Positions 29,452-52,167 are shown, numbered from the stretch's first letter. The stretch: 64,000 nucleotides of DNA from Candidatus Binataceae bacterium (GCA_035939115.1 DASZGF010000205.1:10561-74560); one strand, 5' to 3'. The notes: generated from the letters alone by a model not told the origin. Made by a program: numbers and translations.

Positions 29452-29716
29452 GGCTGCCCTCCGATGCAGGGGCGTCGGCGGTCAATTCCGCGGTCTGGCC
29501 CAACTCTTCGAGCACTCGATAGGCGCGCGCGGCCTCCTCCGGATCGATTTTGGAGATCGCGAAACCGACGTGGACCACCACGAACTCGCCCGGCATCGCC
29601 TCGGGCACGTACTGCAAACAGACCTCGCGCGTGATACCGGCGAAGCGCACTTTGCCCACGCGCAGCCCCTTGTCGTCGCGAACCTCGAGGATCTCACCGG
29701 GGATGCCCAGACACAT
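29426..29716 (-). CDS. hypC: Hydrogenase assembly chaperone HypC (second copy)
   Basis: [12 protein letters not shown]...[15 protein letters not shown]. Confidence 0.88.
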
Positions 29717-30252: not shown

Positions 30253-30354
30253 TCACATCTCGCGTATCTTTATGTAGCGCGCGATGTCCGGAATCGACGA
30301 TACCACCACGTAAGCGACTGCCAGCAGCGCAAGGATACCCACGAGACGTTTCAT
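30253..30354 (-). CDS. 33-aa single-TM miniprotein
   Basis: MKRLVGILALLAVAYVVVSSIPDIARYIKIREM. ATG 30354 is preceded by an aggagg SD and forms an ATGA overlap with the protease stop codon. Confidence 0.5.
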   Translation of the reverse strand: MKRLVGILALLAVAYVVVSSIPDIARYIKIREM

Positions 30355-32895: not shown

Positions 32896-32900
32896 GGCGT

Positions 32901-33551: not shown

Positions 33552-34405
33552 GGCGATGCCTCGGCCAACGCGACTCTCACCCCGGCGTCGTCCTCCAGCA
33601 ATGGAACCGGCTCCAGGTGCAGTTTGCGGTTTTCAAGGGAACCTCCAGCCAGCCGAACGTCGTAGCGCTGTCCGCACGAGGGGCAGCTGAGGACGGTTTG
33701 GTCGAGCGAGCCGGTGTGAATCGCGCCGGCGCATTCCGGACAGCAATCGCGATAGGCGTAGAGGCTGGGCCCGACCCGGCACAGCACGATTCGCGCGCCG
33801 CCGGTTTCGATCGTTGCCAAAGCACCGGGTTCGACCTTGGGCGCGCTAGCCAGCGCCGTCCACTTGGGCGCGTGCCCGGCCAGGCCGTTTAGAGCGGACT
33901 GATTGGAGTTCTGCCCCCCTTCAACTTCGATACTGCTCAGCTCCGGAGCGACCTCCCTGATCGCGCCCTCGACGGCGAGCTTCACCGTCAGCGTCGAGGA
34001 CGGACACGTCTCACAGCTTCCCTCCATCCGCAGGCGCACTACCCCGGTCGCGTCGTCGGCGTCGATCAGCTCAACGTCGCCGCCGTGCGAGCCCAGGTAG
34101 GGACGCACGCGGATTAGCGCTTTGCTCACCCGCGTGGCGAAATCGTCGGGATGCAATCCGTGGAGAATAAGCAGGCTTGAAATCAATTCGTCTTGCGTGA
34201 AACGCTCGAGCAGCGCTTCGCCGAAGGGGCCGCCCTCCGCGCTGATCTCAACGATGCGGCCGAGGCCGGATCCGTACAGCTCCAGAATGAGTCGGATCAG
34301 TTCATCCACCCGCTGCCACGCGGGCGGACTCGCCATCGAGCGCACTTCTTCGAGCAGGCGCTCGATTCGCTCGCCGATTTGACCAGGGCTCCCGCGGTCA
34401 GGCAT
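33548..34405 (-). CDS. NifU-like / Rieske-type ferredoxin fusion protein (HhaA/HhyE-like accessory Fe-S protein)
   Basis: NifU C-terminal-type HGGDVELIDADDATGVVRLRMEGSCETCPSSTLT, followed by CPECAG...LSCPSCGQRYD, a Rieske/NirD-like part. The start is either ATG 34405 or the ORF start at 34444. Confidence 0.7.
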   Translation of the reverse strand: MPDRGSPGQIGERIERLLEEVRSMASPPAWQRVDELIRLILELYGSGLGRIVEISAEGGPFGEALLERFTQDELISSLLILHGLHPDDFATRVSKALIRVRPYLGSHGGDVELIDADDATGVVRLRMEGSCETCPSSTLTVKLAVEGAIREVAPELSSIEVEGGQNSNQSALNGLAGHAPKWTALASAPKVEPGALATIETGGARIVLCRVGPSLYAYRDCCPECAGAIHTGSLDQTVLSCPSCGQRYDVRLAGGSLENRKLHLEPVPLLEDDAGVRVALAEASP

Positions 34406-34508
34406 CTGTGCGCTTCTCCCCGGCGCGGTATTAGATATAAGCACCGCGCGGCCGGTAACGTCAGTTCGCTTGGCTGAAACTCACAACCTGCTCACTACAG
34501 CTCGATCA

Positions 34509-36275: not shown

Positions 36276-36334
36276 GGTGATCCTCCTGATTAGGTAACGA
36301 AGCCGGAGCAGCCAGCCTTTTGGTTTGCGTTAGT

Positions 36335-37369
36335 TCATTTCCAAGTAGGTTGATACCCAGTGGTAAGTTTTGGTCCCGGGCGGCGCCATTTCGGTTCTTT
36401 GTCCAGGGTCGAGGTGGTAAACGAGCGCAAGGCCCTGATGGCGGACCCCAATACGTTGGCGGCCTTGGTCGAGAGCTTGGCGCCCGGCGGTTCGTCCATG
36501 AACGGCATGAATTTGTCGGGGAAGCCGGGCATCGTACAGCCGATACAGATTCCGCCCACGTTGGGACAGCCGCCGATACCGGCCATCCATCCGCGCTTGG
36601 GCACGTTGCACTTCACCACCGGGCCCCAGCATCCCAGCTTGACGATACATTTGGGCGAGCCGTATTCGGTCGCGAAGTCGCCCTGCTCATAGTACCCGGC
36701 ACGATCGCATCCCTCATGGACCGTGGCACCAAATAGCCACTTGGGCCGCAACTCCTCGTCCAACGGAATCATCGGCGCCTGCCCACCCGCCTGATAGAGC
36801 AGATAGAGGATGGTCTCGGAGAGATTGTCGGGCTGGATCGGACATCCGGGCACGCAGACGATCGGGTTGCCGCCCTTGGAGCGGAAATCCCAACCCAGGA
36901 AATCAGGCACACCCATCGCGCCGGTCGGATTCCCGGCCATCGCGTGGATCCCGCCATAGGTCGCGCACGTTCCGACCGCTAAAACGGCCCATGCCTTGGG
37001 CCCCAGCCGCTCCAGCCATTCCGAGGTCGTCATCGGCTGGGTATCGCGGCCACCACCTTCCACGCGATTGCCCATCGCGGCCCAGTAACCCTCGCGCTTG
37101 ATCTCCTCGTTGGGGATGGAGCCCTCGACCACCAGCACGAACGGATCGATTTCGCCTCGATCGGCCTTCCAAAACCACTGCATGAACTCGTCGCCGACCT
37201 GATAGTCAATCAGCAGCCAATGCACTGCGACGCGAGGTAAACCCGGTAGCGTGCCAAGGACGATGTCTTCGATGCTTGGCTGCATGGCCGCCGTCAGCGC
37301 GACCGAGTCACCATCGCAACCCAGTCCCGAGTTCAGCCACAGGATGTGAACGAGCGGTTCCTCTGCCAT
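36335..37369 (-). CDS. hhyS: Group 1h/5 [NiFe] hydrogenase small subunit (no Tat signal)
   Basis: LWLNSGLGCDGDS, GTCATYGGI, VPGCPIQPDN, CIVKLGCWGPVVKCNV, CPNVGGICIGCTMPGFPD. aaggagg SD. Confidence 0.92.
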   Translation of the reverse strand: MAEEPLVHILWLNSGLGCDGDSVALTAAMQPSIEDIVLGTLPGLPRVAVHWLLIDYQVGDEFMQWFWKADRGEIDPFVLVVEGSIPNEEIKREGYWAAMGNRVEGGGRDTQPMTTSEWLERLGPKAWAVLAVGTCATYGGIHAMAGNPTGAMGVPDFLGWDFRSKGGNPIVCVPGCPIQPDNLSETILYLLYQAGGQAPMIPLDEELRPKWLFGATVHEGCDRAGYYEQGDFATEYGSPKCIVKLGCWGPVVKCNVPKRGWMAGIGGCPNVGGICIGCTMPGFPDKFMPFMDEPPGAKLSTKAANVLGSAIRALRSFTTSTLDKEPKWRRPGPKLTTGYQPTWK

Positions 37370-37745
37370 TGCGAGCCTCCTTGCTGAGGTTGGTTTGCAA
37401 GAAAGAAGGCCTGAATAGGCCGTGACTTCTCATTAACGATAGCACTGCATCCGCGAGAAGCCAGAAAAAATATTTACGATCGCGTGCCCGACCGAATAAT
37501 GCCTTCCGACGCGCGCATAGACCACTCCATGCAGCCGCAATCGGCAATACGGTGAACACCCTATTTTTGGGAATTCGATACCTTAGCCCAAAGGAACGCG
37601 CTCCCACATCCGAAGCGTGAAGCGCTGCCGCAGCGCCGGGCTCCGTGCCAGCGTTTTTCCGTCATCGGTGAGGAAGCATGCTCCTTCGCGCTTTCTTCAT
37701 CGCCGGATCTGAATATGCGGAGCCCGATTACCGGCGGTGATTGCA

Positions 37746-38567
37746 CTATTTTATCGGCGGCACGAAATCCGGCATGTCGCGTACCTTGGATTTCCATTGC
37801 GGCTTGCGCTTTTCGAGGAAGGCCGTGATTCCCTCGCCGGCGTCGGGCTGAGTTCCGATCCACCAGAAAATCTGGTCTTCCACCGCCTGAGCTTTTTCGG
37901 CTTCCGGCTCGGTCAGAAAGTTGAAGATCAACCGCTTGGTGATCGCGACCGACATCGGCGAGGTATTGACCGCGATCTCCGCCGCCAGCTCACGGGTTCG
38001 CGCCATGAACTCCGCGTCCGGCCATACGTGACTGACTAGTCCATATTCGAGCGCCTCGCGTGCGTTCAGGATGCGGCCCGAAAGCAGCAATTCACTGGCG
38101 CGCGCTACTCCGACGAGCCGCGGCAGGGTCCAGGCGGCGAGCCCCTCGGGAATGATCCCGCGGCGTACGTACACCAGGCCGATACGCGCGCTTTCGGCCG
38201 CAACCCTGATGTCGTAGTGCAGCGTCAGGGAAGCGCCGGCTCCCACCGCGGGCCCGTTGATCGCCGCGATTATCGGCTTGCGGATGTTCCACGGCCGCAC
38301 TTTGGGTCCGTTGCCGGTGCTGAAGTTCTGGCGGCCGTCGGTATCGAAGGTCTTGCCGCCTGAAGAAAGATCGGCGCCGGCGCAGAACGCCCGGCCCGCG
38401 CCGGTCACGATGATCACCCGCACTTCGTCGTTGTTATCCAGCTCGTAATAGGCCTGATCGAGTTCCTGCCCCATCTGGCCGGTCATCGCGTTGAGTTTCT
38501 CGGGACGATTAAGGGTTAAGGTCGCGATCGAATCCTTGATCTCGACCTGGATCTGCTCCGATGGCAT
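37746..38567 (-). CDS. Enoyl-CoA hydratase/isomerase (crotonase) family protein
   Basis: LTLNRPEKLNAM...VIIVTGAGRAFCAGADL...AAINGPAVGAGA. Confidence 0.85.
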   Translation of the reverse strand: MPSEQIQVEIKDSIATLTLNRPEKLNAMTGQMGQELDQAYYELDNNDEVRVIIVTGAGRAFCAGADLSSGGKTFDTDGRQNFSTGNGPKVRPWNIRKPIIAAINGPAVGAGASLTLHYDIRVAAESARIGLVYVRRGIIPEGLAAWTLPRLVGVARASELLLSGRILNAREALEYGLVSHVWPDAEFMARTRELAAEIAVNTSPMSVAITKRLIFNFLTEPEAEKAQAVEDQIFWWIGTQPDAGEGITAFLEKRKPQWKSKVRDMPDFVPPIK

Positions 38568-38591
38568 AGCGTCTTTCTCCTGGGAGGTGAA

Positions 38592-39815
38592 TCAGTTATG
38601 CGCGGTCTTTGCGCCCCGCTCTGCGAGCCCGTAAAGCGCGGCCGCGTTTTCCTGCGTCATGGCGCGCCGCTGGTCGGCTGGTACGTCGCCAAGGATTTCA
38701 TCGAGGATCTGATGCGAGCAAGGCCAGGTCGAGTCCAGATGCGGATAGTCATTGGCCCACATCAGGTTGCTTACCCCAACCAGCTCGCGCGTCAGCACCC
38801 CGGCCCGGTCGTCCTCGAATGTGGCGAAGAACTGGCGCCGCCAGTACTCGCTGGGGCGCAGATCAAGGTAGTCAGCCGCCGCCTCCGGGGTGCGAAGCAG
38901 GGCCTGATCAAGCCGATCCAGCCAGTGCCCAATCCATCCGGTATTGAACTCCGCAACCACAAACTTGAGCTGGGGATGACGATGCGCGACACCCTGGCAG
39001 ATCAACTCGACCAGCGTTTGCTGGATCGAAACCATGACCCCGGCGTAAGCGATGAGGTAGTCGAAATTCGGGTTCGCACCGATCGCGCGCCGGCGCGGAC
39101 CATTGGTGCCGGCATGCATGCTGAGGGGGAAGTCCGCTTCCTCCGCCGCCGCCCAGATACGCTCGTATGCGGCATCGCGATACGGCCGCTCCACGGGCGC
39201 GGTGCAGGGGATACAACCGCCCCGGAATCCCATACGCAAAACCCGCTCGAGCTCTTTGGCCCCCGCCGCTGGATCGTGCAACGGGATCAACGCGAGGCCG
39301 ACGAGCCGCTCGCCCGCGGGACGGCAATAATCCGCCATCCAGTCGTTGTAATTGCGGAAGCAGGCGGCAACCAGATCGAAGTTGTCAAGGCCGAAGACCG
39401 AAAAAAAGAAGCTCGGATACAACAGCTCGGCACGGACACCGTCCTGATCCTGATCGGTATCACGAGCGGCACCTCGCACCAGCCCCTCGCGCAGACCGGC
39501 GAACCCGCGCCCCAGAATTTCCTTGATGTAAGGGTCGCCCTTATCCTCGGGCAATGGTTTATGACCGGGACGGCGCTCGATACGCCGGCCGGGATCCAGC
39601 CTGCGGCCGGCGATTCCCAACTCCGCCGCGGGGACCGCCCGCCCACCCCGCGCCGGGATCACCATCGCATCGACGTGGCCGCCCACGTTGGCAATGCGGG
39701 GCGCTTCGTCGCCAAAGCGTTGCGCGAGCCCCGCGAAAACTTCTGGCGCCTCCACCACGTGAGAGTCCGCCGAGATAAGAAACCCGGCATTTTCCGGTTG
39801 CGCAGATAACGCCAT
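38592..39815 (-). CDS. Amidohydrolase-2 (ACMSD-like metal-dependent hydrolase) family protein
   Basis: ISADSHVVEAPEVF... and ...WANDYPHLDSTWP. ATG 39815 was chosen; the ORF extends to 39941. Confidence 0.7.
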   Translation of the reverse strand: MALSAQPENAGFLISADSHVVEAPEVFAGLAQRFGDEAPRIANVGGHVDAMVIPARGGRAVPAAELGIAGRRLDPGRRIERRPGHKPLPEDKGDPYIKEILGRGFAGLREGLVRGAARDTDQDQDGVRAELLYPSFFFSVFGLDNFDLVAACFRNYNDWMADYCRPAGERLVGLALIPLHDPAAGAKELERVLRMGFRGGCIPCTAPVERPYRDAAYERIWAAAEEADFPLSMHAGTNGPRRRAIGANPNFDYLIAYAGVMVSIQQTLVELICQGVAHRHPQLKFVVAEFNTGWIGHWLDRLDQALLRTPEAAADYLDLRPSEYWRRQFFATFEDDRAGVLTRELVGVSNLMWANDYPHLDSTWPCSHQILDEILGDVPADQRRAMTQENAAALYGLAERGAKTAHN

Positions 39816-40264
39816 ATTGATCCTCGAAGCGATGCCGCAGAGTTGTTGTTTGCGATTGTCTTGCCCGTTAATGCCACCCAGCCACGCCAGCAATCCGGAG
39901 GTGTTCAGAACTCGATCACGACCCTGGTTCTTCCGTTTCACTCCCCGATTTCAACTCTTTCATGTAGACCGAACTGTCAAGCTCGGCAAGGTTTAGCCAG
40001 AGTAAGTGGTGGGTCAGTTTGAAATAGCGGGCTGCCTGACGGGGCTAACAGGTGAGGCCGGACCGTTCGCTGGCAACCACAAATAGGGTCAATTTGACAG
40101 TCGCGACATGCGAAGTTTGCCGGAACGGGGCGGGTCGGATTCGGACCGACGGGCCGCAGCGCGCGGCGCACCTTTTGCTGACGTTGCGTTCAGCTTCTCC
40201 GCCACGCCGTTTTTCTTTATCGACTCACCCCTTCCTCCAACGCCCTGGAAAATCCCTACTAAAC

Positions 40265-40660
40265 TTATTTATGAGACACTACACTAGAGGCATCGTCGGG
40301 GTGGGGCGCTGGACTAGCCTTCTCGCATCGCGCTTCGGCATCCGCAACGAGTTTGGCTATTGGCGTGAATGAAGGATCGTCTAAATCTACGCCAATCGCA
40401 ACTAGCAAATTACTAACGGTTTTTAGCGTCCAGTTACCAGCGCCTCCAAGCAGTCTGTTTATTCGGGCCGGGTCCTGCGCAAGGCGCTCCGCAAGCTCAA
40501 CTTGGGTCAAGCCCTCCTCCTTGGATTGCTGAATGTATGCATCCAAGACCAAAGCATGAAGCCGGTCGATTAACCGCCCACTGAAGTATTCAAGAGTGCT
40601 TTCGGGAATGGGTTTTTTTTTAAGATCAGATAGAATGGACTTTTGCTGAGACGTAATCAT
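40265..40660 (-). CDS. XRE-family helix-turn-helix protein (antitoxin-like)
   Basis: GLTQVELAERLAQDPARINRLLGGAGNWTLKTVSNLLVAIGVDL. Sits in a low-G+C island, downstream of and overlapping the 180-aa ORF. Confidence 0.6.
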   Translation of the reverse strand: MITSQQKSILSDLKKKPIPESTLEYFSGRLIDRLHALVLDAYIQQSKEEGLTQVELAERLAQDPARINRLLGGAGNWTLKTVSNLLVAIGVDLDDPSFTPIAKLVADAEARCEKASPAPHPDDASSVVSHK

Positions 40661-41168
40661 AAACAGTTCTCCCACTGTGCGCTGAGTAGGGACGAAACAG
40701 CTCATCCCAATCCATTTGACAACGCGCCATTGCTATCTTCGAATTTTTGCGCCCCCTTAATTCTGCATGGTCAAACAAGCGGAGAGCAATAAAAACATCC
40801 GTTTTGGCAAATCGGCCAAGTACTCTCGGCATGTCAGGTCTGCGTCTACCTTGAACACGGACTTCCCACATTTCCTCGCCGGAAGGAACCAGCCTGGCTA
40901 GGTCGGCCCCCTGATGGCGCTCAAGCTTTAGGGCAACAGCAATCGTACGTCCCAAGATGAAGTTGCCGAACACTTGTTGTAACCTACGGCGTGTGAATGC
41001 GTCATTCTGGTTCTCCGAATCGAGAGTGTGATGAATATCGGACGAAGCATAGATGAAACGCCTATAGTCGCTTTGGCGTATTGGCCTAAGGTCTGCCGGC
41101 TCAACCGAGAAGAGCCGCTGCTCATTGCACCTGTTTTCAATTTCATCTGAAATTGACATATAAGTCAA
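40626..41168 (-). CDS. Hypothetical protein (possible HigB/Gp49-like toxin core with an N-terminal extension)
   Basis: 180-aa ORF in the low-G+C island. EMWEVRVQGRRRPDMPRVLGRFAKTDVFIAL is loosely reminiscent of RelE/Gp49-type toxins. The assignment is weak. Confidence 0.35.
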   Translation of the reverse strand: MTYMSISDEIENRCNEQRLFSVEPADLRPIRQSDYRRFIYASSDIHHTLDSENQNDAFTRRRLQQVFGNFILGRTIAVALKLERHQGADLARLVPSGEEMWEVRVQGRRRPDMPRVLGRFAKTDVFIALRLFDHAELRGRKNSKIAMARCQMDWDELFRPYSAHSGRTVYDYVSAKVHSI

Positions 41169-41213
41169 TGGGCAACTGACTTGTCGATCCGTGCCGGCAG
41201 CGCTAACCGCGGT

Positions 41214-42716
41214 TCAGCGCCGCTGCTTGATCGGAAGAATCACCCGAACATGTGTGCCGCTCTTGGGTGAACTGGTAGCACTGATTCGCCCTGCATGCCG
41301 TTCGACGATCTTGCGGCAGATTGCCAGGCCCATACCGTTTCCCTGGTAATCGCCGCGGTGCAGGCGCTGGAAGGGTTGAAACAGTTGGGGCGCCAGTTTG
41401 GGGTCGAATCCAACGCCGTTGTCCTCGACGCGCAGCTCGAAGACGCTGCCCGCGCCGCGCTTGCCACGCCTGGGAAAACTCGCACGCAAGCGCACTATCG
41501 CCGGCTGATCCGGGCGGCGAAACTTCAGCGCATTATCGATCAGGTGGTGAAGCATCGTGTGCATCTGGCGGGGTATGGCCTCGATGGTCGGCAAAAATCC
41601 GCCCTCTATGCTGGCTTGGCTGGTGCTAATCCGCTCGTCCATCTCGCCAATCACTTTCGCCGCCAGCTTGCCGAGATCCACCGGCCGGACTTTGCTTCGA
41701 TCGCCGGCGACCTCGGCGTACTGGAGTAAATCATCGACCAGCGACGAGATCCGATCGGCCGATTTTCGCAGACGCTCAAGGTTTGCCGGCGGAAGTCCCG
41801 GCTTTACTGCCGGTCGTTTGCCTGAGTGCCCGCCGCCCGCGGACGGCTTGCCGCGCGGTTCACGCAAATCGTGGGTGGCAACGGCGGCCAGTTGCCGGAG
41901 TTCAGTGTTGGAGCGGGCCAATTGTGACAGCAGTGCCTCGCGCTCGACCTCCGCGCGGCGGCGCTCACTGATGTCGCGAATCGCCATCACCGTACCGACC
42001 ACCCGGCCCTCATCGTCATGGATTGCGGTGCTGCGCTCCTCGACGGGAATTTCGCTTCCCTGCCTTGAAATCAGCATGCCCTCCAGCGCAACGTTGCCGC
42101 GCTCCAATCGCTGCCGCTCGACCTCGGCCCCTGACACGGAATACTCGACCTTAAGCATCTCCGCAGTCTGAAGTCCGGCCGCCTCGGCCACCGTCCACCC
42201 GGTCAGCCGCTCCGCCACGGGGTTCATGAACCGAATCCGCCCTTGCGCATCGGCCGCAATCACGCCGTCGGCGATACTTCTAAGCGTGGCCGCCAGCCAT
42301 CGCTCGCTTTCCTTGACCCGCTGTTCGAGCTGATGGCGATACAACGCCACCTCCACCGCCGCATGCAACTCGCGCTCCCCAAAGGGCTTGATCAGGTAGC
42401 CCAGCGCGCCGGTCAGCCGCGCCCTGCTGAGCGTGGCGGGATCGGCATAGGCGGTGAGGTAAATCGCCGGGATGTCAAAGCGCGTGCGAATCTCTTCGGC
42501 CGCTTCGACCCCGTCAATGGCGCCGCGCAGCCGGATATCCATCAGCACCAGGTCGGGGCGCAGCGCGGCGGCCTTTTCAATCGCCTCCTCACCGCTGGCG
42601 GCGGTGGCGGGCACGGCGTAGCCAAAGCTGATAAGGTCGCGCTGGATATCCAGGGCTACGATATTCTCATCCTCGACCACCAGGATTCTGGGCGCTTCGC
42701 TCGCGTCGGCCATCAT
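41214..42716 (-). CDS. Hybrid response-regulator receiver / PAS / histidine kinase
   Basis: REC (ILVVEDE...DLVLMDIRL...YLIKPF), PAS (IADGVIAADAQGRIRFMNPVAERLTGW), H-box ATHDLREP and HATPase (DNGVGF...GNGMGLAICRKIV). Confidence 0.8.
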   Translation of the reverse strand: MMADASEAPRILVVEDENIVALDIQRDLISFGYAVPATAASGEEAIEKAAALRPDLVLMDIRLRGAIDGVEAAEEIRTRFDIPAIYLTAYADPATLSRARLTGALGYLIKPFGERELHAAVEVALYRHQLEQRVKESERWLAATLRSIADGVIAADAQGRIRFMNPVAERLTGWTVAEAAGLQTAEMLKVEYSVSGAEVERQRLERGNVALEGMLISRQGSEIPVEERSTAIHDDEGRVVGTVMAIRDISERRRAEVEREALLSQLARSNTELRQLAAVATHDLREPRGKPSAGGGHSGKRPAVKPGLPPANLERLRKSADRISSLVDDLLQYAEVAGDRSKVRPVDLGKLAAKVIGEMDERISTSQASIEGGFLPTIEAIPRQMHTMLHHLIDNALKFRRPDQPAIVRLRASFPRRGKRGAGSVFELRVEDNGVGFDPKLAPQLFQPFQRLHRGDYQGNGMGLAICRKIVERHAGRISATSSPKSGTHVRVILPIKQRR

Positions 42717-42719
42717 GCC

Positions 42720-44303
42720 TCAGCCTCGGTTGGGAAAGCTGATGGCGAACTCGGTGCCCGCGCCACGGCGCAGCTCCAGATCTCCGCCAATCTGTTCGGT
42801 GAGCGTCCTCACCAGTTGCATCCCAAGCGTTTCGGTGGTGCGAAAATCGACCTGCGCGGGAAAACCGACACCATCGTCGGCCACCGTAAGCTTTAAACGG
42901 GTGACGTCCACCGGCCGCAGCTCAACCCTGATGCGCCCGGCGCGGCCATCGGGAAATGCGTACTTGAGACAATTGGAAATGAGTTCGTTCAGGATCAAAC
43001 CAAGCGGCACCGCCAGCTCGATACTCAAGGCCGCGCTTTCGATTGCGGTGTCCAGCTCGATATGCGGGCGCGCCGCGTAGGAGCGCAGCAGCAGACTTAG
43101 CAGGTCGCGCACGTAGGAGGCGAATTCCACCCGCGAGAGATCCGGCGATTGGTATAACTTTTCGTGGATCAGCGCCATCGAGCGAATCCGGTTCTGGCCC
43201 TCGTGGAACATTTCCAGCGCCGAGCCATCGCGGACGCCTGCCGCCTGGAGCTTGAGCAGACTTGAGATCACCTGAAGATTGTTCTTAACCCGATGATGAA
43301 TCTCCTTGAGCAGACTTTCCTTTTCCCTCAGTGAGGCCTTGAGCTGCTCGGCACCGGCCCGCATCGCCTCCTCCGCCCGTTTGGTTTCCGAGATGTCATA
43401 GGCGACCCCCTGGATAAACAGCGGGCGCCCATGTTCGTTGCGCACGACGCGTGCTTCGCCATGAATCCAGACCACCGAGCCGTTGCGATTGAGCGCGCGA
43501 AATTCAGCCTTGAAGGGCCCCCCGGTGGCGCAGCCGCGCGCAAATTCCTCATGCAGCAGGTCGCGGTCATCCGGATGGATCTGGTGGTACCACAGCACTG
43601 GATCGCTGAGCCATTGCTCCTGGGTAAAGCCCAACAGTTCCTCGACCTGGGGGCTCACGTAGAGTTCGTGGATGTCTTCATCGAGCGCGGCCATCGCGGT
43701 CACCACCGGGAGTTGTTCAATCAGCGTACGGTAACGGGCTTCGGCTTTGCGCCGCTCCAGCTCCAGGCGGTTGGGCTCGGTCAGGTCGCGCACCACGATG
43801 ATGAATCGGCGCTGCTCTCCAAGCTTAAAATCGGTGCTGGTGATCTCCACCGAGAACCGGGTTCCGTCCCGGCGCCGGCCGACGGTATCGGGACGCACGC
43901 TGAGCGCGGCGGCGCGGCGGGAAGCTACAACCGCCAACCCACCGGCATCGCTGGTCGCGCTGGTCAACAACATCCCGATATGCCTGCCCACCGCCTCCGC
44001 GGCGTTGTAGCCGAAGATCTTTTCGGCGATCGGGTTGAACGATTCGATAATCTCGCGCTCGTCAAGGATCAGGATGCCGTCTTCGGCTACGCTCACCGGC
44101 TCCGGCCGCTCTTCTTTCGCCGTTGCATAAGTACGCAGGACTTGCGTCAGTTCCGGTCCGATGAGCGAGAACGCCTGCGCCATCCCCTGCACCGAACTCC
44201 ACGCGCGCTCGAAGCTATCCGGCGCCCGCTCAGCCTTGCGCAAAACCGGCGCCAACTCGGCGTGCACCCGGCCATCCGGATCAGAATTGCGGCGGACTTT
44301 CAC
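42720..44303 (-). CDS. Soluble PAS-PAS HisKA_2/HWE-type sensor histidine kinase
   Basis: Two PAS-like segments, H-box EIHHRVKNNLQVISSLL and HATPase (ADDGVGFP...GMQLV). No TM segment. The GTG start forms a GTGA overlap with the restored stop of the hydrogenase large subunit. Confidence 0.8.
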   Translation of the reverse strand: MKVRRNSDPDGRVHAELAPVLRKAERAPDSFERAWSSVQGMAQAFSLIGPELTQVLRTYATAKEERPEPVSVAEDGILILDEREIIESFNPIAEKIFGYNAAEAVGRHIGMLLTSATSDAGGLAVVASRRAAALSVRPDTVGRRRDGTRFSVEITSTDFKLGEQRRFIIVVRDLTEPNRLELERRKAEARYRTLIEQLPVVTAMAALDEDIHELYVSPQVEELLGFTQEQWLSDPVLWYHQIHPDDRDLLHEEFARGCATGGPFKAEFRALNRNGSVVWIHGEARVVRNEHGRPLFIQGVAYDISETKRAEEAMRAGAEQLKASLREKESLLKEIHHRVKNNLQVISSLLKLQAAGVRDGSALEMFHEGQNRIRSMALIHEKLYQSPDLSRVEFASYVRDLLSLLLRSYAARPHIELDTAIESAALSIELAVPLGLILNELISNCLKYAFPDGRAGRIRVELRPVDVTRLKLTVADDGVGFPAQVDFRTTETLGMQLVRTLTEQIGGDLELRRGAGTEFAISFPNRG

Positions 44304-46084
44304 TTAAGTATCCCCAACAGCGGCGAATGTTCGACCTCGACTGTTTTCCCGCCGCCCAGGTACATGTGCACTCCGCACGGCAGGCAGGGATCGAAGCTTC
44401 GCACAGCGCAGGATATCAATCCCCTTGAACTCGTCGCGGCCATTTTCTTCGAAGATGGGCGTGTTCTGGATGGCGTCTTCGTAGGGGCCGGGCGTCCCGT
44501 GAAGATCGCGCGGGCTCGCGTTCCAGCAAGTCGGCGGATATGGATGGTAGTTGGCCAGCTTGCCCTCGCGAATCACCAGGTGATGGGAGAGCGCCCCGCG
44601 CACCGCCTCGTGGAAGCCACAGCCAACGGCCTCCTGCGGCACTTTGAACTCGGTCCAGGTTTTGGTCCGGCCCGCCAGCACCTCCGCGCGCGCCTGCTCC
44701 AGAAAGTACAGCGCGGCAGCGGCGGCGTAGGCCTGGAAATAAGTGCGCGCGCGATTGCGCTCGAGCGTGTTGCTCCACTTGGGGATCTTCCATTCCAGTT
44801 CGGTCTCGGGAATCGCCGCGCTTTTGGGCAGACGGATTTTCAGACCGCCGCGCGCCGCTTCGATATAGCCGATCCGCACCCGTTGCGAGAGCGCCGTGCT
44901 CCACAACCGGGCCAGCGGTCCGCCGCCGGTATCCAACGCGAGGTGGCGGTTGTTGCGCGCGTCGTACCATCGCGGCGACATGACCCAGGTGTACTTGCCG
45001 GCAAAATCGCGGCGGTCTGGCTTGGGGATGGTGGTCTGATTCCACGGATGGCGCTGATCGACGGGATTACCCAGCGGATCAGACTTCACAAAAGTCTCCG
45101 CGCCTGCCAGTCGTCGTAAAATGAACTTCCCAATAAAATCCGGATGCCAAGGTTAATCTCGACCAGATCGGTGGTCAGCAGTTCGCCGTCGACAATGATC
45201 CCCGGCGTGACATACATCTCGCGTCCCCAGCGGCTCATCGTCGCGTAGTCGAAGTCGCACGCCTCCGGGTTTTGGAACGACCCCCAACAGCCCAGCAAAA
45301 TCCGGCGCCGGCCAACCTCTTCATAGCCGGGCAGCGCCTCGTAGAAAAAATCAAACAAATCGTCATGAAATGCGACTGCGCGTTTGATGAAATCGATATA
45401 CTTCATCAGCCGAACCAGGTATCCGGTGAACAACTGGATATCGGCGACGGTGCCGACTCCACCCGGATAGAGGGTCGAGGGATGCGCATGACGGCCGCCC
45501 ATCAGGCAATACATCTCGCGCGCCAGGCGGCTCATCTCCAGCGCCTCGCGGTAGAACGGCCCCTGGAACGGATTGAGCGCGGCCATCAGGTCGCCAATCG
45601 TGGCGTAGCCGTGCCGCGCGGCATTGGGCGCCGCCGCGCGCTGCGCTTTGGCCAGTACGGCGGGATTGGTCTCCCGCATCATGCGCTCGCAGAAATCGAC
45701 CCCTACCATGTTGTCCTGGAACAGGTTGTGATCGAACATGTATTCGGCGGCTTCCGCCAGGTTGATTATCCAGTCGGCCAGCGGCGGCGGCTTCACCCCG
45801 AACGCCATGTTTTGCGCATACACCGCGCAAGTTGCGTGATTGTCGCCGCAGATGCCGCAGATGCGGCTGGTGATGAACTGTGCATCGCGCGCATCCTTGC
45901 CCTTCATGAAGATGCTGTAGCCGCGGAAGATCGAGGAAGTGGCGTGGCATTGCGCGACCTGGCGATTGGCGAGATCGACCTTGGCGTGGATGCCGAGGCT
46001 GCCCACCACGCGCGTGATGGGATCCCAGGTCACATCGAGCATTTCGCCCGAGCCCTGGCCGTCGCGCCGCCGCGGCTTAGCCAT
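44300..46084 (-). pseudogene. hhyL: Second group 1h-type [NiFe] hydrogenase large subunit with two frameshifts
   Basis: ORF 45086..46084 carries TSRICGICGDNHATC. It is joined to ORF 44304..45089 by a 1-nt shift near 45090-45100. The L2 motif FDPCLPCGVHMYLGGGKTVEVEHSPLLGILK* (44366-44392 for DPCLPCGVH) is only reached after a further 2-nt shift near 44403-44409. Confidence 0.85.
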
Positions 46085-47174
46085 TGCGCTTTTCCCTTTT
46101 GACGGTTTCCGGCGTCCGCTGATCGGCGGCCTGATGGTTCGCGCGGCCGCGCCAATCCGGCTCCCGATCCATCGAGTCGATGGTAAAGCGCCGCAGCGCC
46201 CTCACCGCGCGCCCGTACATCATTACCGCCGAGGACGACATCTTTGCTCCCGGCGGCTCATCCATGAAGGGCATGATCTTGTCGGGAAACCCGGGCATCG
46301 TACAGCCGATGCAGATCCCGCCGACATTCGGACAGCCGCCGACACCGCCGATCCATCCGCGCTTGCCGACGTTGCATCGCACCACCGGGCCCCAGCATCC
46401 GAGCTTGACGATACACTTGGGACGGCCGTATTGCTCCTCGAAATCAGCCTGTTCGTAGTATCCGCCGCGATCGCAGGTTTCATGTACCGTCGGCCCGAAC
46501 AACCATCGCGGACGCAAACAGTCATCCAGCGGGATCATCGGCGCGTGGCCCGCCGCCTGGTAAAGCAGGTAGAGCAGCGTCTCCATAAAGTTGTCGGGCT
46601 GCACCGGGCATCCGGGAACGCAGACAATCGGGATACCGGCGCGCGATCGCCAGTCCCATCCCAGGAAATCAGCCACTCCCATACAGCCAGTAGGATTGCC
46701 GGCGTCCGCGTGGATGCCCCCGTAGGTAGCGCACGTTCCCGCCGCCACAATCGCCCACGCATTGGGCGCCAGCCGCTCCAGCCATTGGCAGGTGGTAATC
46801 GGTTGGCCGGTGGCCGCGTCGGTTCCCATCGCCGCCCAGTAACCTTTGCGCTTGTTGGTTTCGTCGGGAATCGATCCTTCCACCACCAGCAGGTACGGAC
46901 CGAGCTTGCCGCGCGCCGCGCGATGGAAGTGATCGAGGAACTGGTCGCCGACCTCGTAGGCCAACACCGGGTTGTGCAGAGTAACTTTGGGAATGCGGGG
47001 AATGGCGCCGAGCACGATGTCCTCGATACTGGGCTGGGTTGCGGCGGTCATCGCGATCGTGTCACCGTCACAACCCAAACCGGCGGTGATCCATAAAATG
47101 TCGAGTTCTTGAAGCGGCGCGAGCGCTTGCGCGCGCGGGACGAGCGTTTTCCCGGGTTTAGCCGCGCGCGCCAT
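46077..47174 (-). CDS. hhyS: Second group 1h-type [NiFe] hydrogenase small subunit (intact)
   Basis: LWITAGLGCDGDT, GTCATYGGI, VPGCPVQPDN, CIVKLGCWGPVVRCNV, CPNVGGICIGCTMPGFPD. All Cys positions of the first copy are conserved. No Tat signal. Confidence 0.9.
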   Translation of the reverse strand: MARAAKPGKTLVPRAQALAPLQELDILWITAGLGCDGDTIAMTAATQPSIEDIVLGAIPRIPKVTLHNPVLAYEVGDQFLDHFHRAARGKLGPYLLVVEGSIPDETNKRKGYWAAMGTDAATGQPITTCQWLERLAPNAWAIVAAGTCATYGGIHADAGNPTGCMGVADFLGWDWRSRAGIPIVCVPGCPVQPDNFMETLLYLLYQAAGHAPMIPLDDCLRPRWLFGPTVHETCDRGGYYEQADFEEQYGRPKCIVKLGCWGPVVRCNVGKRGWIGGVGGCPNVGGICIGCTMPGFPDKIMPFMDEPPGAKMSSSAVMMYGRAVRALRRFTIDSMDREPDWRGRANHQAADQRTPETVKREKRNG

Positions 47175-47182
47175 AAACCAGC

Positions 47183-47836
47183 CTATACCTGGATGATGTT
47201 GTTGCGCAGCGCATAGCGCACCAGTTCGCCAATGGAATGAATGCCCAGCTTGCGCATCAGGTTGGCGCGATGAGTGACCACCGTCTTAAGGCTTATGCCA
47301 AGGGCCGCGGCGACCTCCTTGCTGCTCTTTCCCTCCGCCAGCAGTTGCACGATCTCGCGTTCGCGCGGGGTCAGCTCCGCCGCCGTTGGCGGGCCGCTCG
47401 ATTTGGCCTTGAGGTCATTGCGATATCCCCCCAGCATCATCTCGGCCACTTTGGAGTCGAAAAAGGGTTTGTGCGCCCGCAACGATTCAACCGCCGCCAA
47501 AAGGTCCCGCGCCGCTTCGGCCTTGGACAGATAACCATGCGCGCCGGCCGCCAGCGCCTCGCGCATCATCTGTTCGGACTCATGCATCGTGAGCACCAGG
47601 ATCTCGATTTGCGGCATGGTCTTGTGAATCTTACGAATCGTTTCCAAGCCGTTCATCCCCGGCATCGAGATGTCCACGACCAGAAGATCAGGCTTAAGGC
47701 GGCGCGCCTGCTCGACGGCATCATGCCCGGTCGCGGCCTCGCCGCAAACATTCCACCCGGTCTGGCTCTCCAACAGGGCGCGGATGCCTCTGCGGACGAC
47801 TTCGTGGTCATCGGCCACCAGGATCCTGGTCGTCAT
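47183..47836 (-). CDS. NarL/FixJ-family response regulator (REC + LuxR-type HTH)
   Basis: ILVADDHEVVRRG...DLLVVDISMPGMNG... and LTPREREIVQLLAEGKSSKEVAAALGISLKTVVTHRANLMRKLG. Confidence 0.9.
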   Translation of the reverse strand: MTTRILVADDHEVVRRGIRALLESQTGWNVCGEAATGHDAVEQARRLKPDLLVVDISMPGMNGLETIRKIHKTMPQIEILVLTMHESEQMMREALAAGAHGYLSKAEAARDLLAAVESLRAHKPFFDSKVAEMMLGGYRNDLKAKSSGPPTAAELTPREREIVQLLAEGKSSKEVAAALGISLKTVVTHRANLMRKLGIHSIGELVRYALRNNIIQV

Positions 47837-49455
47837 CGATCGCTCCCAGGCATGGGCAGCACGGCCCGCACTGTAGCTCCCGAGCCAACGCTCTGGATTT
47901 CCAATCGGCCGCCGGCCTGACGCGCCCGTTCCTGCATACTGCGAATGCCGACGCCGAGTCCGGCCGCGACCAGGGCGCCGTTTCCGCTTGCGGTCGAAAA
48001 TCCGCGGCCCTGATCCGAAATTTCCAGCACCAGCTCGTCCTCACGTTGCGACAGCGCGATGCGCGCGGTCGGGCTGCCGGAATGCAGATGGACGTTGGTC
48101 AGGCTTTCCTGCACGATGCGGAACAGGGTCGTTTCCATCGCGTCGGGTAATCGCCCAATTGCGCCCGGCAAGTCAAGCTCCACCCCAATTCCGCTCCGGC
48201 GCGTGAAGCCTTCCACATAGCCGCGCAGCGCGTATGCAAGTCCCGCTTCCTCGAGCATCGGCGGATGCAACAGGTAGGAGAGCGTGCGCAGCTCGCGCAG
48301 GCAGCCCTCGGCCAGCCGTAGCCCTTCCTCGAAGGCCGCTTGAGCGCCGGGACTGAAACGCGGCTCCGATCGCTCCACCAGGCTCAGATTCATCGACAAC
48401 GCCGCCAGCTTCTGGGCCGTGGTGTCGTGGAGTTCGCGGGCGATCCGCCGCCGTTCCTCGTCCTGCAGGCGGAGCAGGCGGCCGGAAAGCTCCTGAACGG
48501 TTCTTTCGGCCGCTTTGCGTTCGGTGATGTCGCGGATGATCACGAGTTGCCATTGTTCTCCGGCGATTCCGATTTTGGCGGCCGAAAACAATCCGCGGCG
48601 CACGCTCCCATCCTGGCGCCTGAAGCTGGTTTCCAGATTGCGCACGAACCCGCGACTGCGCAGTTCGTCCGTAACCGTGGTCAGTTCATCTTTGTCCACC
48701 CAGATCCCAAGCTCAGCCGACGTGCGGCCAATCATCTCCGTGCGGGGCAAGCCGATGAAACGCGAGCATTCATCGTTGATGTCGGCGAATTGGCCGTCGG
48801 CCATGCGGATAATCGCCACGGCGTCCAGACTGCCCTCGAAGATGGCCCTGAATTTTTCCTCGGCCGCCGCCAGCGCTTCTTCGGTCCGCTTTTGGCCAGT
48901 GACGTCGATTAGCAGCCAATGCAACTCGGTCGGCTGCCCCGCCGGTCCGCGCGAAGCGGCGACCGTCAACGCCGCCTGGGTCACGGTTCGCCGCGGTCCC
49001 ACAATCCTGGCCTCCAGGTCGCGGGCCCTTGAGTCGGTTGCGCGATACATCTCAGCCAGATTTGCGGCCAGTAAGTCGCGGTCGGGCTCCGCAATCAGGA
49101 AGCTGAGCGGAATGCCGATCAAGGCCTGGCGCCGCATTCCCAACAGCGCCGCCGCGGTCGCGTTGGCGTCTTCGATCACACCCTTGGGGTCGGTGACCAG
49201 ACACGCCAGTGGAGAGACTTCGAATAGTTCGCGATAACGGTGTGCCGCCGCCTCTTCCGCCTGCTGCAACTCGACCGGTTCATGGTCGGAAACGGCGCTC
49301 TGGCCGCGGGCGCCTTCCAGGTCTTCGAAGATGTTCCACACTTCCTCGAGCGTCTCGACCAGCGCCGACGCTGGTATGTCGGCGCGCCGGCGCCGCAGTG
49401 CGCGCGCCTTTAACCGCGCCGCGGCAATTCCCACCGAGAGCGTTTTGCTCTTCAC
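47833..49455 (-). CDS. Soluble PAS-PAS HisKA_3-type sensor histidine kinase (NarX/DegS-like core)
   Basis: Two PAS segments, H-box RRIARELHDTTAQKLAAL and HATPase (ISDQGRGF...GVGIRSMQERA). 4-nt overlap with the response regulator gene. No TM segment. GTG start. Confidence 0.85.
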   Translation of the reverse strand: MKSKTLSVGIAAARLKARALRRRRADIPASALVETLEEVWNIFEDLEGARGQSAVSDHEPVELQQAEEAAAHRYRELFEVSPLACLVTDPKGVIEDANATAAALLGMRRQALIGIPLSFLIAEPDRDLLAANLAEMYRATDSRARDLEARIVGPRRTVTQAALTVAASRGPAGQPTELHWLLIDVTGQKRTEEALAAAEEKFRAIFEGSLDAVAIIRMADGQFADINDECSRFIGLPRTEMIGRTSAELGIWVDKDELTTVTDELRSRGFVRNLETSFRRQDGSVRRGLFSAAKIGIAGEQWQLVIIRDITERKAAERTVQELSGRLLRLQDEERRRIARELHDTTAQKLAALSMNLSLVERSEPRFSPGAQAAFEEGLRLAEGCLRELRTLSYLLHPPMLEEAGLAYALRGYVEGFTRRSGIGVELDLPGAIGRLPDAMETTLFRIVQESLTNVHLHSGSPTARIALSQREDELVLEISDQGRGFSTASGNGALVAAGLGVGIRSMQERARQAGGRLEIQSVGSGATVRAVLPMPGSDR

Positions 49456-49680
49456 CGGACCTCCAGTTAAGTCTGCGCCACGGTTCTCTCCGCTATCTCA
49501 ATAATCCCGAATTGGCAAACTCGGCAAGGTCGGCCAGGCTTGTTTTTCGCAACGGCGCAGGCTTGCCAACAAAGCCGGCTGCCCAGACCTTCGCGCGCAG
49601 CCATTGCGGGTCCGCCCCTGATCAAACGATACTTCTCACCGGCTCGTAGCGGCGACCTCGCCGGGGAGGAGTGCATTCAT

Positions 49681-52167
49681 TTGGCACAGTCCGCAACTGA
49701 CGATCGTTTCGAGGCAGCGCAGGCTGCGGCTCGTATGCCCCTGTCGGGTGTTTGCGTAGTGGAAGCCGGGCAGGGCGTGGCGGCCGCATTCGGCGCCAAG
49801 CTGATGGCGCTGCTGGGCGCGGATGTAATCAAGGTCGAGCCGCCCCAGGGCGACATCACCCGGCGATGGGGCCCGTTTCCGGGCGACGTACAGGACCCCG
49901 AAAATAGCGGCCTGTTCCGCTACCTCAACGCCGACAAGCGCGGCGTCACGCTTGATCTGCACGTTGCGCCCGAACGCGACACGCTGCACCAGCTTCTGGC
50001 CGGCGCCGACATTCTGATTCACGAGATTCCACCGGCCGCGCGCGCCGCCTGCGGATTGGACAGCGACTTGCTCTGCCGCAAGCATCCCCGCCTGATCGTC
50101 ACTTCGATTTCGGCCTATGGCGGCTTCGGCCCGCGCGCCAATTACCACGCCTACGAGATCAACGCGTTGCATTCCAGTGGAATCGCGATTCTTAATCCAC
50201 GCCTCTCCGAGCGGCCCGACCTGCCGCCGCTCAAACCCTACGGCCATCACGCGGAATTTCAGGGCGGAGTTCATGCCGCCGCGGCGACCCTGGCCGCGTT
50301 GCGCCATCGGATGAAATCCGGCGCCGGTCAGGCAGTCGATGTCAGCGAGCAGGAATGTCTGGCGGCGGCGCTGGAGCTGAGCCTGGTCTGGTACACCTAC
50401 GAGGGAAAACGCACCTCGCGAATGGGATGGGTAAACTCGGCTCCCACCGGGATTTTCGATTGCGCCGATGGCCTCGCCGAGATCATGTGCGTCGAGGACG
50501 CGCACTGGCACCGTCTGGCGGAATTCCTGGGCAAGCCGGAATGGCTGGAGGAGGAGATCTTCATCCAGCGTCCGTCGCGGATCAAGAATTCCGACGCGGC
50601 CAATGCGCTGGTGGCGCAAGCCGTTGCCGGTCGCCCGATGCTGGGCACTGTTCGCGGGTTGCAGCACGTCCGCGTACCGGCCGCTCCGGTAAGCACGATG
50701 GCGGACCTTTACCACGATGAGCATCTGAAGAGCCGCGAGTTTTTTGTTCCACTCCCCGCGCACGACAGTGCCGAAGCGCCCGCGCTTGCGCCCAGTGTGC
50801 CCTTCAAATCCACCGCGATGGGATGGTCGATGCGCCGCCCGGCACCGCGGTTGGGCGAACACAACCAGGACGTGATGCAGGAAATTGCCGCACGCAGCGC
50901 GGCGCCGACGACGCCGCAATCCGCTATCGCGCCGCTGGCTGGTGCGGAGTCGGCGCCCGGTCCACTAAGCGGCGTGCGCGTGCTGGATTTTAGCTGGGTG
51001 TGGGCGGGACCGTTTTGCACCCTGCAACTGGCCCATCAGGGCGCGGAGGTCATCCGCGTCGAAACCAGCAAGCGTCCGTGCATCAACCGCGTCATCCCGC
51101 CTTATGCAGAGGGTAAAGCCGGCGTGAATCGCGCCGGCAGTTTCAACCAATGGAACCAGGGCAAACGCAGCCTCCAACTCGATCTGTCCAAGCCGCAGGC
51201 GGCGGAGATCGCGCGTGAACTGGCCCGCCATTGCGATGTCGCAGTGGAAAATTTCGCGCCCGGCGTGATCGATCGCTTCGGAGTCGGCTACCAGGCGCTG
51301 CGCGCGGCCCGGCCGGACCTGATAATGCTATCCATGTCGGGCTACGGTCAGACTGGTCCCTACGCGAAGTTCGTGAGCTATGGCCTGATGATCGCCTCGC
51401 ACTGCGGCCTGCATACGGTCACCAGCTACGACGGCGACCGGCCACGCGAACTGGGCGTCAGCTACGCCGACCCCACCACTGGCATCTTCGGCGCCTACGC
51501 GATAATCGCGGCATTGATCCATCGCGATCGCACCGGCCAGGGGCAGCACATCGACCTGTCGATGCTCGAAGCGATGGAGATGATCATGCCCGAGCCGCTG
51601 CTCGAATACGCAATCAGCGGCCGCGAGCCCCGTCCGATAGGCAATCACGACCCATGGATGTCACCACACAACTGCTACAAAGCGCGCGGCGACGCGGAGC
51701 ATTGGGTCACAATCGCGGTGGGCAACGAAAGGGAGTGGCAAGCCTTGTGCGAAGCGATGGGCAAGCCCTCGATGGCACAAGACCCGCGCTTCCACGACGC
51801 ACCAGCGCGCAAGCAAAACGAAGCCGAACTGGACCGCATCATCAATGCCTGGACCTCGGAGCGCGACCGCTGGGAAATAACCGAGATACTCCAACGCGCC
51901 GGCGTAGCCGCGATTCCCACCTTCACCAACGAAGACGTGGCCAAAGATCGCCACATGCGCGAGCGCGGCTTCTTGATCGAACTACCCCACCCGGAAATAG
52001 GCCCCTACACCCACGCAGGCGTGCCCTGGACGATGTCGCGCACGCCAAGCAAGGTGCGCACCCCCGCCCCGCGCCTGGGCGCCGACACCGATTACGTGCT
52101 GCGCGAAATCCTGGGCTATTCGCCGGACAAGATCGCGGAGCTGCGCGGTACGAGAATCATCGGCTGA
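49681..52167 (+). CDS. Tandem-fused double CaiB/BaiF family (class III) CoA-transferase
   Basis: Two complete modules: PLSGVCVVEAGQGVAAAFGAKLMALLGADVIKVE... and PLSGVRVLDFSWVWAGPFCTLQLAHQGAEVIRVE.... TTG 49681 sits behind ggggaggag; ATG 49735 is an alternative start. Confidence 0.75.
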   Translation: MAQSATDDRFEAAQAAARMPLSGVCVVEAGQGVAAAFGAKLMALLGADVIKVEPPQGDITRRWGPFPGDVQDPENSGLFRYLNADKRGVTLDLHVAPERDTLHQLLAGADILIHEIPPAARAACGLDSDLLCRKHPRLIVTSISAYGGFGPRANYHAYEINALHSSGIAILNPRLSERPDLPPLKPYGHHAEFQGGVHAAAATLAALRHRMKSGAGQAVDVSEQECLAAALELSLVWYTYEGKRTSRMGWVNSAPTGIFDCADGLAEIMCVEDAHWHRLAEFLGKPEWLEEEIFIQRPSRIKNSDAANALVAQAVAGRPMLGTVRGLQHVRVPAAPVSTMADLYHDEHLKSREFFVPLPAHDSAEAPALAPSVPFKSTAMGWSMRRPAPRLGEHNQDVMQEIAARSAAPTTPQSAIAPLAGAESAPGPLSGVRVLDFSWVWAGPFCTLQLAHQGAEVIRVETSKRPCINRVIPPYAEGKAGVNRAGSFNQWNQGKRSLQLDLSKPQAAEIARELARHCDVAVENFAPGVIDRFGVGYQALRAARPDLIMLSMSGYGQTGPYAKFVSYGLMIASHCGLHTVTSYDGDRPRELGVSYADPTTGIFGAYAIIAALIHRDRTGQGQHIDLSMLEAMEMIMPEPLLEYAISGREPRPIGNHDPWMSPHNCYKARGDAEHWVTIAVGNEREWQALCEAMGKPSMAQDPRFHDAPARKQNEAELDRIINAWTSERDRWEITEILQRAGVAAIPTFTNEDVAKDRHMRERGFLIELPHPEIGPYTHAGVPWTMSRTPSKVRTPAPRLGADTDYVLREILGYSPDKIAELRGTRIIG

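Follow-up and report, generated by a model that had tools for sequence, protein, structure and literature searches.

A group 1h-type [NiFe] hydrogenase pair within a two-component signalling operon of Candidatus Binataceae: a candidate H2-sensing module

A 64,000-nucleotide stretch of DNA from Candidatus Binataceae bacterium (GCA_035939115.1, DASZGF010000205.1:10561-74560; hereafter, the window) carries on its minus strand, at positions 41214-49455, six genes in which the small and large subunits of a second group 1h/5 [NiFe] hydrogenase, HhyS2 and HhyL2, are embedded among genes for histidine kinases and a response regulator. S2-type small subunits are near-exclusively coupled in genomes to one PAS domain, and the signalling-hydrogenase module is under purifying selection. 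On the sequence evidence presented here, we put at roughly even the chances that HhyS2, in this lineage together with HhyL2, is a duplicated group 1h module recruited as input to a cytoplasmic two-component network controlling the adjacent hhy operon. Group 1h hydrogenases are the drivers of the main biological sink of atmospheric H2. In HydDB, the sensory [NiFe] classes are groups 2b and 2c only, with group 1h comprising atmospheric H2 scavengers (PMC5037454), and a 2026 paper describes the sensors of atmospheric H2 oxidation as still unknown (PMC13098282).

Operon layout and class of the hydrogenase pair

Open reading frame (ORF) calls and Pfam searches recovered all six genes on the minus strand, in the order and with the domains that an initial annotation of this DNA had proposed. 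HK1 (47833-49455) encodes a soluble kinase of 540 amino acids (aa) with two PAS domains, HisKA_3 and HATPase_c, and is followed by RR (47183-47836), a NarL/LuxR-type response regulator of 217 aa with REC and GerE helix-turn-helix (HTH) domains. Next come hhyS2 (46077-47174; Oxidored_q6 and NiFe_hyd_SSU_C), with an unbroken frame of 365 aa, and hhyL2 (44300-46084; NiFeSe_Hases), which spans 595 codons once repaired. HK2 (42720-44303), with a GTG start, encodes a soluble kinase of 527 aa composed of PAS_9, PAS_3, HisKA_2/HWE and HATPase_c, and its residues ~185-316 (43356-43751, minus strand) form the PAS domain associated with HhyS. A 500 aa hybrid kinase (41214-42716) with REC, PAS, a weak or degenerate HisKA and HATPase_c closes the series. 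HK1 is the probable cognate kinase of the NarL-type regulator, and the hybrid kinase the likely phospho-acceptor of HK2.

The five junctions given by the initial annotation all proved exact on reading the sequence. HK1 and RR overlap by 4 nucleotides (nt) at 47833-47836, RR and hhyS2 are separated by an 8-nt gap (47175-47182), hhyS2 and hhyL2 overlap by 8 nt (46077-46084), the TGA stop of hhyL2 and the GTG start of HK2 share a GTGA overlap (44300-44303), and a 3-nt gap (42717-42719) lies between HK2 and the hybrid kinase gene. No transmembrane-like segment was found in the operon proteins, as first proposed for the four signalling proteins, the maximum Kyte-Doolittle 19-mer being 1.75 and located within the ATPase domain of HK2. 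A promoter and terminator scan of positions 36000-50000 returned matches no commoner than in shuffled sequence, including consensus terminators inside the operon, and bears neither way on co-transcription; in an NCBIfam scan, neither S2 nor L2 nor any of the kinases matched a curated family above its cut-off.

These six genes, in the same order and with equal lengths and overlaps, occur in Binataceae relatives L001/L160, L158, L159, L202, L203 and a JGI contig, so that the synteny which the initial annotation had suggested looking for is conserved. Because it recurs at equal gene lengths in independent assemblies, the operon order is more than chance. In these relatives hhyS1, hhyL1 and the genes for NifU/Rieske, DUF5947 and DUF6084 lie ~260-900 nt downstream of the operon. 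Orthologs of HK1 in L001 and L158 are 79-83% identical, those of RR are 89% identical (with a ratio of nonsynonymous to synonymous substitution, dN/dS, of 0.07), and HK2 has orthologs in L001, L158, L202 and L203, with versions 46-49% identical adjoining Hhy operons in L074 and L206. The HisKA region of the hybrid kinase is faint in all relatives too (L202, L203 and the JGI contig among them). Frameshifts were considered as an explanation and rejected, since the indels relative to L001 are all multiples of three and the relatives are equally faint; this region may be a divergent phosphotransfer domain, or the protein a pseudo-kinase.

The initial annotation had attributed the hydrogenase pair to group 1h/5 on the strength of its motifs and the absence of a twin-arginine translocation (Tat) signal. 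We assigned the class by PDB matches and motifs. HhyL2 matches best the large subunit HofG (5AA5_C, 1053 bits), with the next class at 150 bits and the group 2a hydrogenase Huc, the sole group 2 structure found, at ~121; HhyS2 matches best the small subunit HofK (5AA5_A, 563 bits), followed by a match at 155 and by Huc at ~101. The pair contains TSRICGICGDNH, and after frame repair HhyL2 carries both group 1h signatures, the L1 motif (xSRICGICGDNH) and the L2 motif (DPCLPCGVH). HhyS2 keeps all Fe-S cysteine columns common to the enzyme HhyS, and its N-terminus has no twin-arginine motif (RRxF) and thus no Tat signal. By sequence, therefore, given the best matches to 5AA5, the Ni-Fe cysteine motifs and the retained Fe-S columns, the pair clearly belongs to group 1h/5 and not to group 2b. 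The original attribution holds, with the qualification that FDPCLPCGVH comes into frame only after repair. At the C-termini, HhyS2 is without the conserved LTTGY tail of enzyme-type HhyS, and HhyL2 runs 21 residues beyond its final histidine (HMYLGGGKTVEVEHSPLLGILK), like HhyL1, and so keeps its C-terminal extension.

The pair is paralogous to the neighbouring enzyme, with 68.7% identity between S1 and S2 and 70.2% between L1 and L2. No gene for HhyE, DUF5947, DUF6084 or a protease was found between or beside hhyS2 and hhyL2; such genes accompany hhyS1L1 (30253-34444), which bears out the earlier description of the pair as a paralog without accessory genes of its own. Judged by dN/dS (S2 0.15 and L2 0.10, versus S1 0.056 and L1 0.032), the paralogous pair evolves ~3 times faster than S1 and L1.

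In the window, hhyL2 falls into three frame pieces rather than one open frame. Alignment to the DNA of L001, a Binataceae metagenome-assembled genome (MAG) used as the reference for the operon, places a first lesion at 45103-45104 (minus strand), where 1 nt is missing relative to the orthologs (CAG-GCGCGG), and a second at 44406-44407 (minus strand), where 2 nt are missing (CTGCG--CTGTG) and which, combined with the first, regains the original frame. These are the only two indels in the whole-operon alignment that are not multiples of three, and the FDPCLPCGVH motif and the GTGA overlap are in frame only once both are repaired. Other genes of the window are broken as well: hypF (23248-26005) contains a 1-nt insertion (GTTAACT, ~25540) and an in-frame TAG (23611-23613), hypE (26694-27762) is split by a frameshift near 27330, and atpA, encoding the N-type ATPase alpha subunit (16562-18170), contains an in-frame TGA at ~16838 and a frameshift at ~17870-17950. 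If the breaks in hypE and hypF were true, no [NiFe] hydrogenase could mature, and assembly errors are the more likely explanation for them.

The hhyL2 breaks, too, are probably an error of assembly rather than biology. The repaired gene has 595 codons, equal to its orthologs; its dN/dS relative to L001 and L158 is 0.10, and the stretch between the lesions, read in the original frame, gives 0.10-0.13, the same as its flanks. A search of 5.8 billion proteins returned 12 clusters of L2 orthologs at 87-94% identity (the next at <=80%), of which 11 are full length (581-595 aa), the remaining one being a fragment of 499 aa from a 2-kb contig. The sister long-read assemblies L159, L158, L202 and L203, which have Flye-style contig names, carry similar breaks scattered over other genes. 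It is a good deal less probable that the lesions are real and mark a recent pseudogene, drifting toward the arrangement of Acidobacteriota in which S2 is an orphan, a question that is independent of function. Both lesions of the operon do fall within hhyL2, its other 6.5 kb being free of them, those elsewhere in the window are concentrated in few genes (atpA and hypF with two each, hypE with one), two of these are in-frame stops, which are atypical of indel errors, and loss of L2 has evidently occurred in other lineages. Besides the even dN/dS of the out-of-frame stretch, the full-length orthologs and the scattered breaks of the sister assemblies, a real pseudogene is at odds with the neighbouring enzyme, since without working hypE and hypF none of the three hydrogenases of the window would be functional, yet hhyS1L1 is intact and 93-97% conserved.

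Coupling of S2-type small subunits to a PAS kinase

Three scans of species-representative genomes, with S2, L2 and the PAS domain as queries, yielded loci that were analysed with tblastn, blastp and neighbor-joining (NJ) trees. Among the 246 distinct small-subunit sequences in these loci, a kinase with the HK2-type PAS domain is the next gene in 98 of 115 distinct S2-type cases and in none of the 121 enzyme (S1-type) HhyS, for which the next gene encodes the large subunit in 114 of 121, the other seven lying at a locus edge or having no scored neighbour. A set collected independently, through the large subunit, gave the same picture, with the PAS kinase next to 26/27 S2-type and 0/54 S1-type subunits; the residues diagnostic for the two types also hold in this set (26/27 and 54/54, respectively). 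The split between the S2 and S1 clades has an NJ bootstrap support of 71/100, and the kinase-adjoining large subunits of Binataceae and Chthoniobacterales form a clade apart from 96 enzyme-type HhyL with support of 100/100. The phylogenetic check proposed in the initial annotation thus places S2 and L2 in distinct kinase-linked subclades, as judged by NJ trees.

Wherever an S2-type subunit occurs, the accompanying PAS domain is ~50% identical to that of HK2 (49-58% across phyla), and no other part of the kinases is conserved in this way. Among 130 distinct sequences of this PAS family, 29 columns are conserved at >=95%, and the conserved columns include no cysteine and no obvious cofactor motif. 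A reverse search with the PAS domain found a Hhy small subunit, usually S2-type, directly upstream in ~29 of 34 strong matches. Loci L169, L175, L176, L191 and L161, in which a PAS kinase of the family has no S2-type subunit within 6 kb, are exceptions to the coupling; in exception loci of the Pyrinomonadaceae type, the kinase and regulator still precede hhySL.

The S2/PAS-kinase pairing recurs in ~100 soil-bacterial loci. Its main architecture, found in Acidobacteriota (at least 73 loci), consists of an orphan S2, a PAS-HisKA_3 kinase, a NarL regulator, hhyS, hhyL and NifU. In Chthoniobacterales, a trio of S2, L2 and PAS kinase stands alone, with no accessory genes, and in the window L2 sits between S2 and the PAS kinase. 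Across phyla, orphan S2 proteins share 70-77% identity with S2 along the entire HhyS fold, and the window S2 clusters with the orphan acidobacterial copies. The conserved partner of the kinase is, in sum, the small subunit and not the S2/L2 pair.

A sensory role for S2/L2 in the detection of H2 is plausible on these comparisons. The absence of accessory genes beside S2/L2 here and in Chthoniobacterales, the lost tail of S2 and the soluble partners are sensor-like traits that speak for it. In such a system, H2 would be split at the Ni-Fe site of HhyL2 or, where L2 is missing, at that of the enzyme's own HhyL, and the three Fe-S clusters of HhyS2 would become reduced. The PAS domain of HK2 could dock on S2 and read its redox or conformational state, upon which HK2, through its HisKA_2 domain, would signal to the hybrid kinase, probably by phosphorylating its REC domain. 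This network, together with the HK1/NarL-type pair as the DNA-binding output, would then set the transcription of the downstream hhyS1L1 and accessory genes. Extended to soil bacteria at large, the proposal becomes more tentative, and we consider it rather doubtful that a group 1h-derived sensor class, with HhyS2 seated on a PAS kinase, controls atmospheric-H2 oxidation in general, with most Acidobacteriota borrowing the large subunit of the regulated enzyme and Binataceae and Chthoniobacterales keeping HhyL2. Were this so, group 1h would gain its first sensory role, and Hhy its first identified regulator outside mycobacteria.

Several observations weigh against a sensory role. Relative to the enzyme HhyL, L2 shows conservative changes only and bears no sequence mark of lost catalysis, it keeps a C-terminal extension that group 2b sensors do not have, and its gene is frameshifted in this window. 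Most S2 genes are without a large subunit of their own, the bootstrap support for the S2/S1 split is moderate only, and in 5 of the 34 loci with the PAS kinase no S2 lies nearby. A single hhyL is reported for cultured Acidobacteria (PMC5900883), and known hhy induction follows starvation, not H2 supply. Lastly, in L204 (Paludisphaera mucosa, GCA_029589435.1) and L206 (the Binatia MAG DASPNH010000127.1), the only Hhy is an S2/L2-like hydrogenase that has full hyp and accessory genes and is directly followed by kinases of the same PAS family, so that these may do no more than control an ordinary enzyme or respond to one. The kinases of L206 are orthologs of HK2 (49%) and, following it, of the hybrid kinase (43%), and its small subunit is S2-like, without the LTTGY tail. 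Because an S2/L2-like hydrogenase is the sole Hhy in L204 and L206, the S2/L2 clade is not intrinsically sensor-only, and the link between hydrogenase and kinase is therefore older than the duplications. In lineages without a duplicated subunit, this suggests, the kinase may receive its signal from, or pass it to, the enzyme directly.

The same loci lend some weight to the view that S2/L2 is a second catalytic Hhy isoenzyme, or a subclade of enzymes neighbouring kinases that regulate its expression or target it and do not read it as a sensor. L2 keeps every catalytic motif as well as the extension used in maturation, S2 keeps all cluster ligands, starvation drives hhy induction, and in L204, L206, L074 and L096 no Hhy is visible other than a kinase-linked, S2/L2-like pair that has maturation or accessory genes. 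We nevertheless regard an isoenzyme as unlikely. HhyE, DUF5947 and DUF6084 do not occur with S2/L2 in the window, in the Binataceae relatives or in Chthoniobacterales; ~100 loci keep S2 without L2, and a lone small subunit cannot be an isoenzyme; S2 has lost the C-terminal tail of the enzyme HhyS; and the translationally coupled GTGA junction between L2 and HK2 argues for stoichiometric co-production.

Alternatively, S2 may be a stand-alone Fe-S sensor of redox state or O2 that has ceased to need a large subunit, reporting the redox or energy state of the cell (starvation) rather than H2 to the PAS kinase, with L2, where present, as an evolutionary leftover. Most S2 genes are orphans, cultured carriers have one hhyL, hhyL2 is broken in the window, hhy is induced by carbon starvation or in stationary phase, and in strain KBS 83 S2 itself rises in stationary phase. 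To this reading we give the same low probability as to an isoenzyme, for three reasons: the similarity of orphan S2 proteins to S2 extends over the full fold, which fits retained binding of a large subunit; L2 orthologs are full length in 11 of 12 clusters and under purifying selection (dN/dS 0.10); and a kinase-adjoining L2 recurs in two phyla, with Binataceae in one and Chthoniobacterales in the other. The H2-sensing input device remains the reading we favour for HhyS2, and with it the locus is a good experimental lead as a candidate sensor.

Neighbouring enzyme cluster and flanking genes

The presumed regulatory target of the signalling operon is the canonical Hhy enzyme cluster at 30253-37369 (minus strand), in which Pfam searches identified hhyS1, hhyL1, NifU-Rieske, DUF5947, DUF6084, an unknown protein of 455 aa, a HycI-type protease and DUF6893. 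The enzyme small subunit hhyS1 occupies 36335-37369, the large subunit hhyL1 34509-36275 and the HhyE-like NifU-Rieske gene 33548-34444, all on the minus strand, and orthologs of the cluster are 93-97% identical, with dN/dS of 0.03-0.06. The hyp genes, with hypE and hypF disrupted, are located at 21502-29716. The initial annotation described this cluster as separate and 7 kb away from the signalling operon. The cluster itself is real; the distance, on the other hand, is due to a lineage-specific insertion of ~3.8 kb (37370-41213) between the operon and hhyS1; none of the five relatives compared has it, and in them the operon abuts hhyS1. The insertion contains genes for an enoyl-CoA hydratase (37746-38567), an amidohydrolase (38592-39941) and an HTH protein (40265-40705), and a further ORF (40626-41168); a search for repeats at its borders revealed no mobile-element signature.

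Alignment of the window with L001 and L158 identified a conserved 45-nt block at 37543-37587 (minus strand), ~200 nt upstream of hhyS1, which contains a TAGGGT direct repeat ~24 nt apart and is nearly invariant while the surrounding spacer has diverged. A second non-coding block upstream of hhyS1 that is nearly invariant in the same three sequences, TGCTATCGTT, lies at 37435-37444. On their conservation, both blocks are candidate operator or promoter elements of the enzyme operon. Shared operator words were also sought in 87 acidobacterial intergenic regions between regulator and hhyS; the top k-mers encode the N-terminus of HhyS (VPYGR), and none was found.

On the other side of the operon, and divergent from it, a two-domain CoA-transferase family III gene (49540-52167) is a conserved neighbour in all Binataceae relatives, where it encodes 818-819 aa; the 875-aa ORF of the window probably starts too early. 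Farther away, the window contains a third [NiFe] large subunit (10306-12213; 482 aa), closest to the sulfhydrogenase/group 3b alpha subunit and below NCBIfam cut-offs. This group 3b-like hydrogenase has a HycI-type protease of its own and an NAD-binding/Fe-S subunit at 8590-9693, and an N-type ATPase operon (12302-19170; beta, epsilon, a, b/delta, alpha and gamma) lies between it and the hyp genes.

Relation to earlier reports and known systems

An additional hhyS copy reportedly occurs in Pyrinomonas methylaliphatogenes, an observation that Giguere 2020 attributes to Greening 2015. Acidobacteriaceae KBS 83 and Edaphobacter aggregans also have such a copy, noted at ~3.6 kb upstream of their hhy genes (Giguere 2020, PMC8027828 SI-2). 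The KBS 83 homolog of hhyS is expressed and rises 13-fold in stationary phase, with hhyL induced ~125-fold, while that of E. aggregans is silent, with hhyL induced ~3.5-fold only (Giguere 2020, PMC8027828); these levels are a hint in favour of the proposed regulatory role. A literature search for a group 1h sensor, or for a link between hhyL and a kinase, found nothing in main texts and only a passing note in supplementary information (SI). Because that note, in the SI of Giguere 2020, concerns the additional hhyS copy, the idea of a sensor has been glimpsed before, though not characterised, and is not wholly new. The statement of the initial annotation that no sensory role had been described for this class needs correcting to this extent, as the SI touches the idea (PMC8027828). 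Within the literature searched, we found no description of the dedicated L2 paralog, of this particular PAS domain, of the clade structure, of how widely the module is distributed or of the six-gene Binataceae operon.

The locus and its ~100 relatives constitute a candidate regulator of Hhy, comprising a HhyS paralog, one PAS domain and a NarL-type regulator on the promoter side of hhy. The module is carried by cultured strains, namely KBS 83, E. aggregans and P. methylaliphatogenes according to the literature and KBS 96 and Paludisphaera mucosa according to the scans reported here, which makes the question directly testable. With a large subunit of its own, the Binataceae version is the most complete and the easiest to compare with HoxBC-HoxJ.

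The acidobacterial additional hhyS resembles the window S2 in being ~70% identical to hhyS, in having a kinase and a regulator adjacent, and in its position a few kb upstream of hhySL. The window differs in having a dedicated large subunit, so that S2 is no orphan, in carrying the diagnostic PAS domain on a HisKA_2 rather than a HisKA_3 kinase, and in adding both a hybrid kinase and an HK1/RR pair that is separate; the published acidobacterial notes give no link to the PAS domain, no clade structure and no distribution. The enzyme Hhy, represented by HofKG of Cupriavidus necator (PDB 5AA5), is the best match of the window pair and shares with it the L1 and L2 cysteine motifs, the Fe-S columns and the absence of a Tat signal. 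Unlike the enzyme, the window pair is without HhyE, DUF5947 and DUF6084 of its own and its S2 without the LTTGY tail, it lies among signalling genes, with translational coupling to them, and it evolves ~3 times faster.

The closest functional parallel is with the group 2b hydrogenases HoxBC and HupUV, which dock on PAS kinases (PMC5037454; PMC13098282). Like the HoxBC-HoxJ-HoxA system of C. necator and the HupUV-HupT-HupR system of Rhodobacter capsulatus, the window combines a cytoplasmic, Tat-less pair with a soluble PAS kinase and a response regulator, adjoins the uptake-hydrogenase genes that it would control, and has no accessory genes of its own. In contrast to group 2b, its subunits belong to group 1h/5 (1053/563 bits to 5AA5 versus ~121/~101 to Huc), its L2 keeps the C-terminal extension removed by the maturation protease, its regulator is of the NarL rather than the NtrC type, two kinases and a hybrid kinase take part, and most S2 lineages duplicate the small subunit only.

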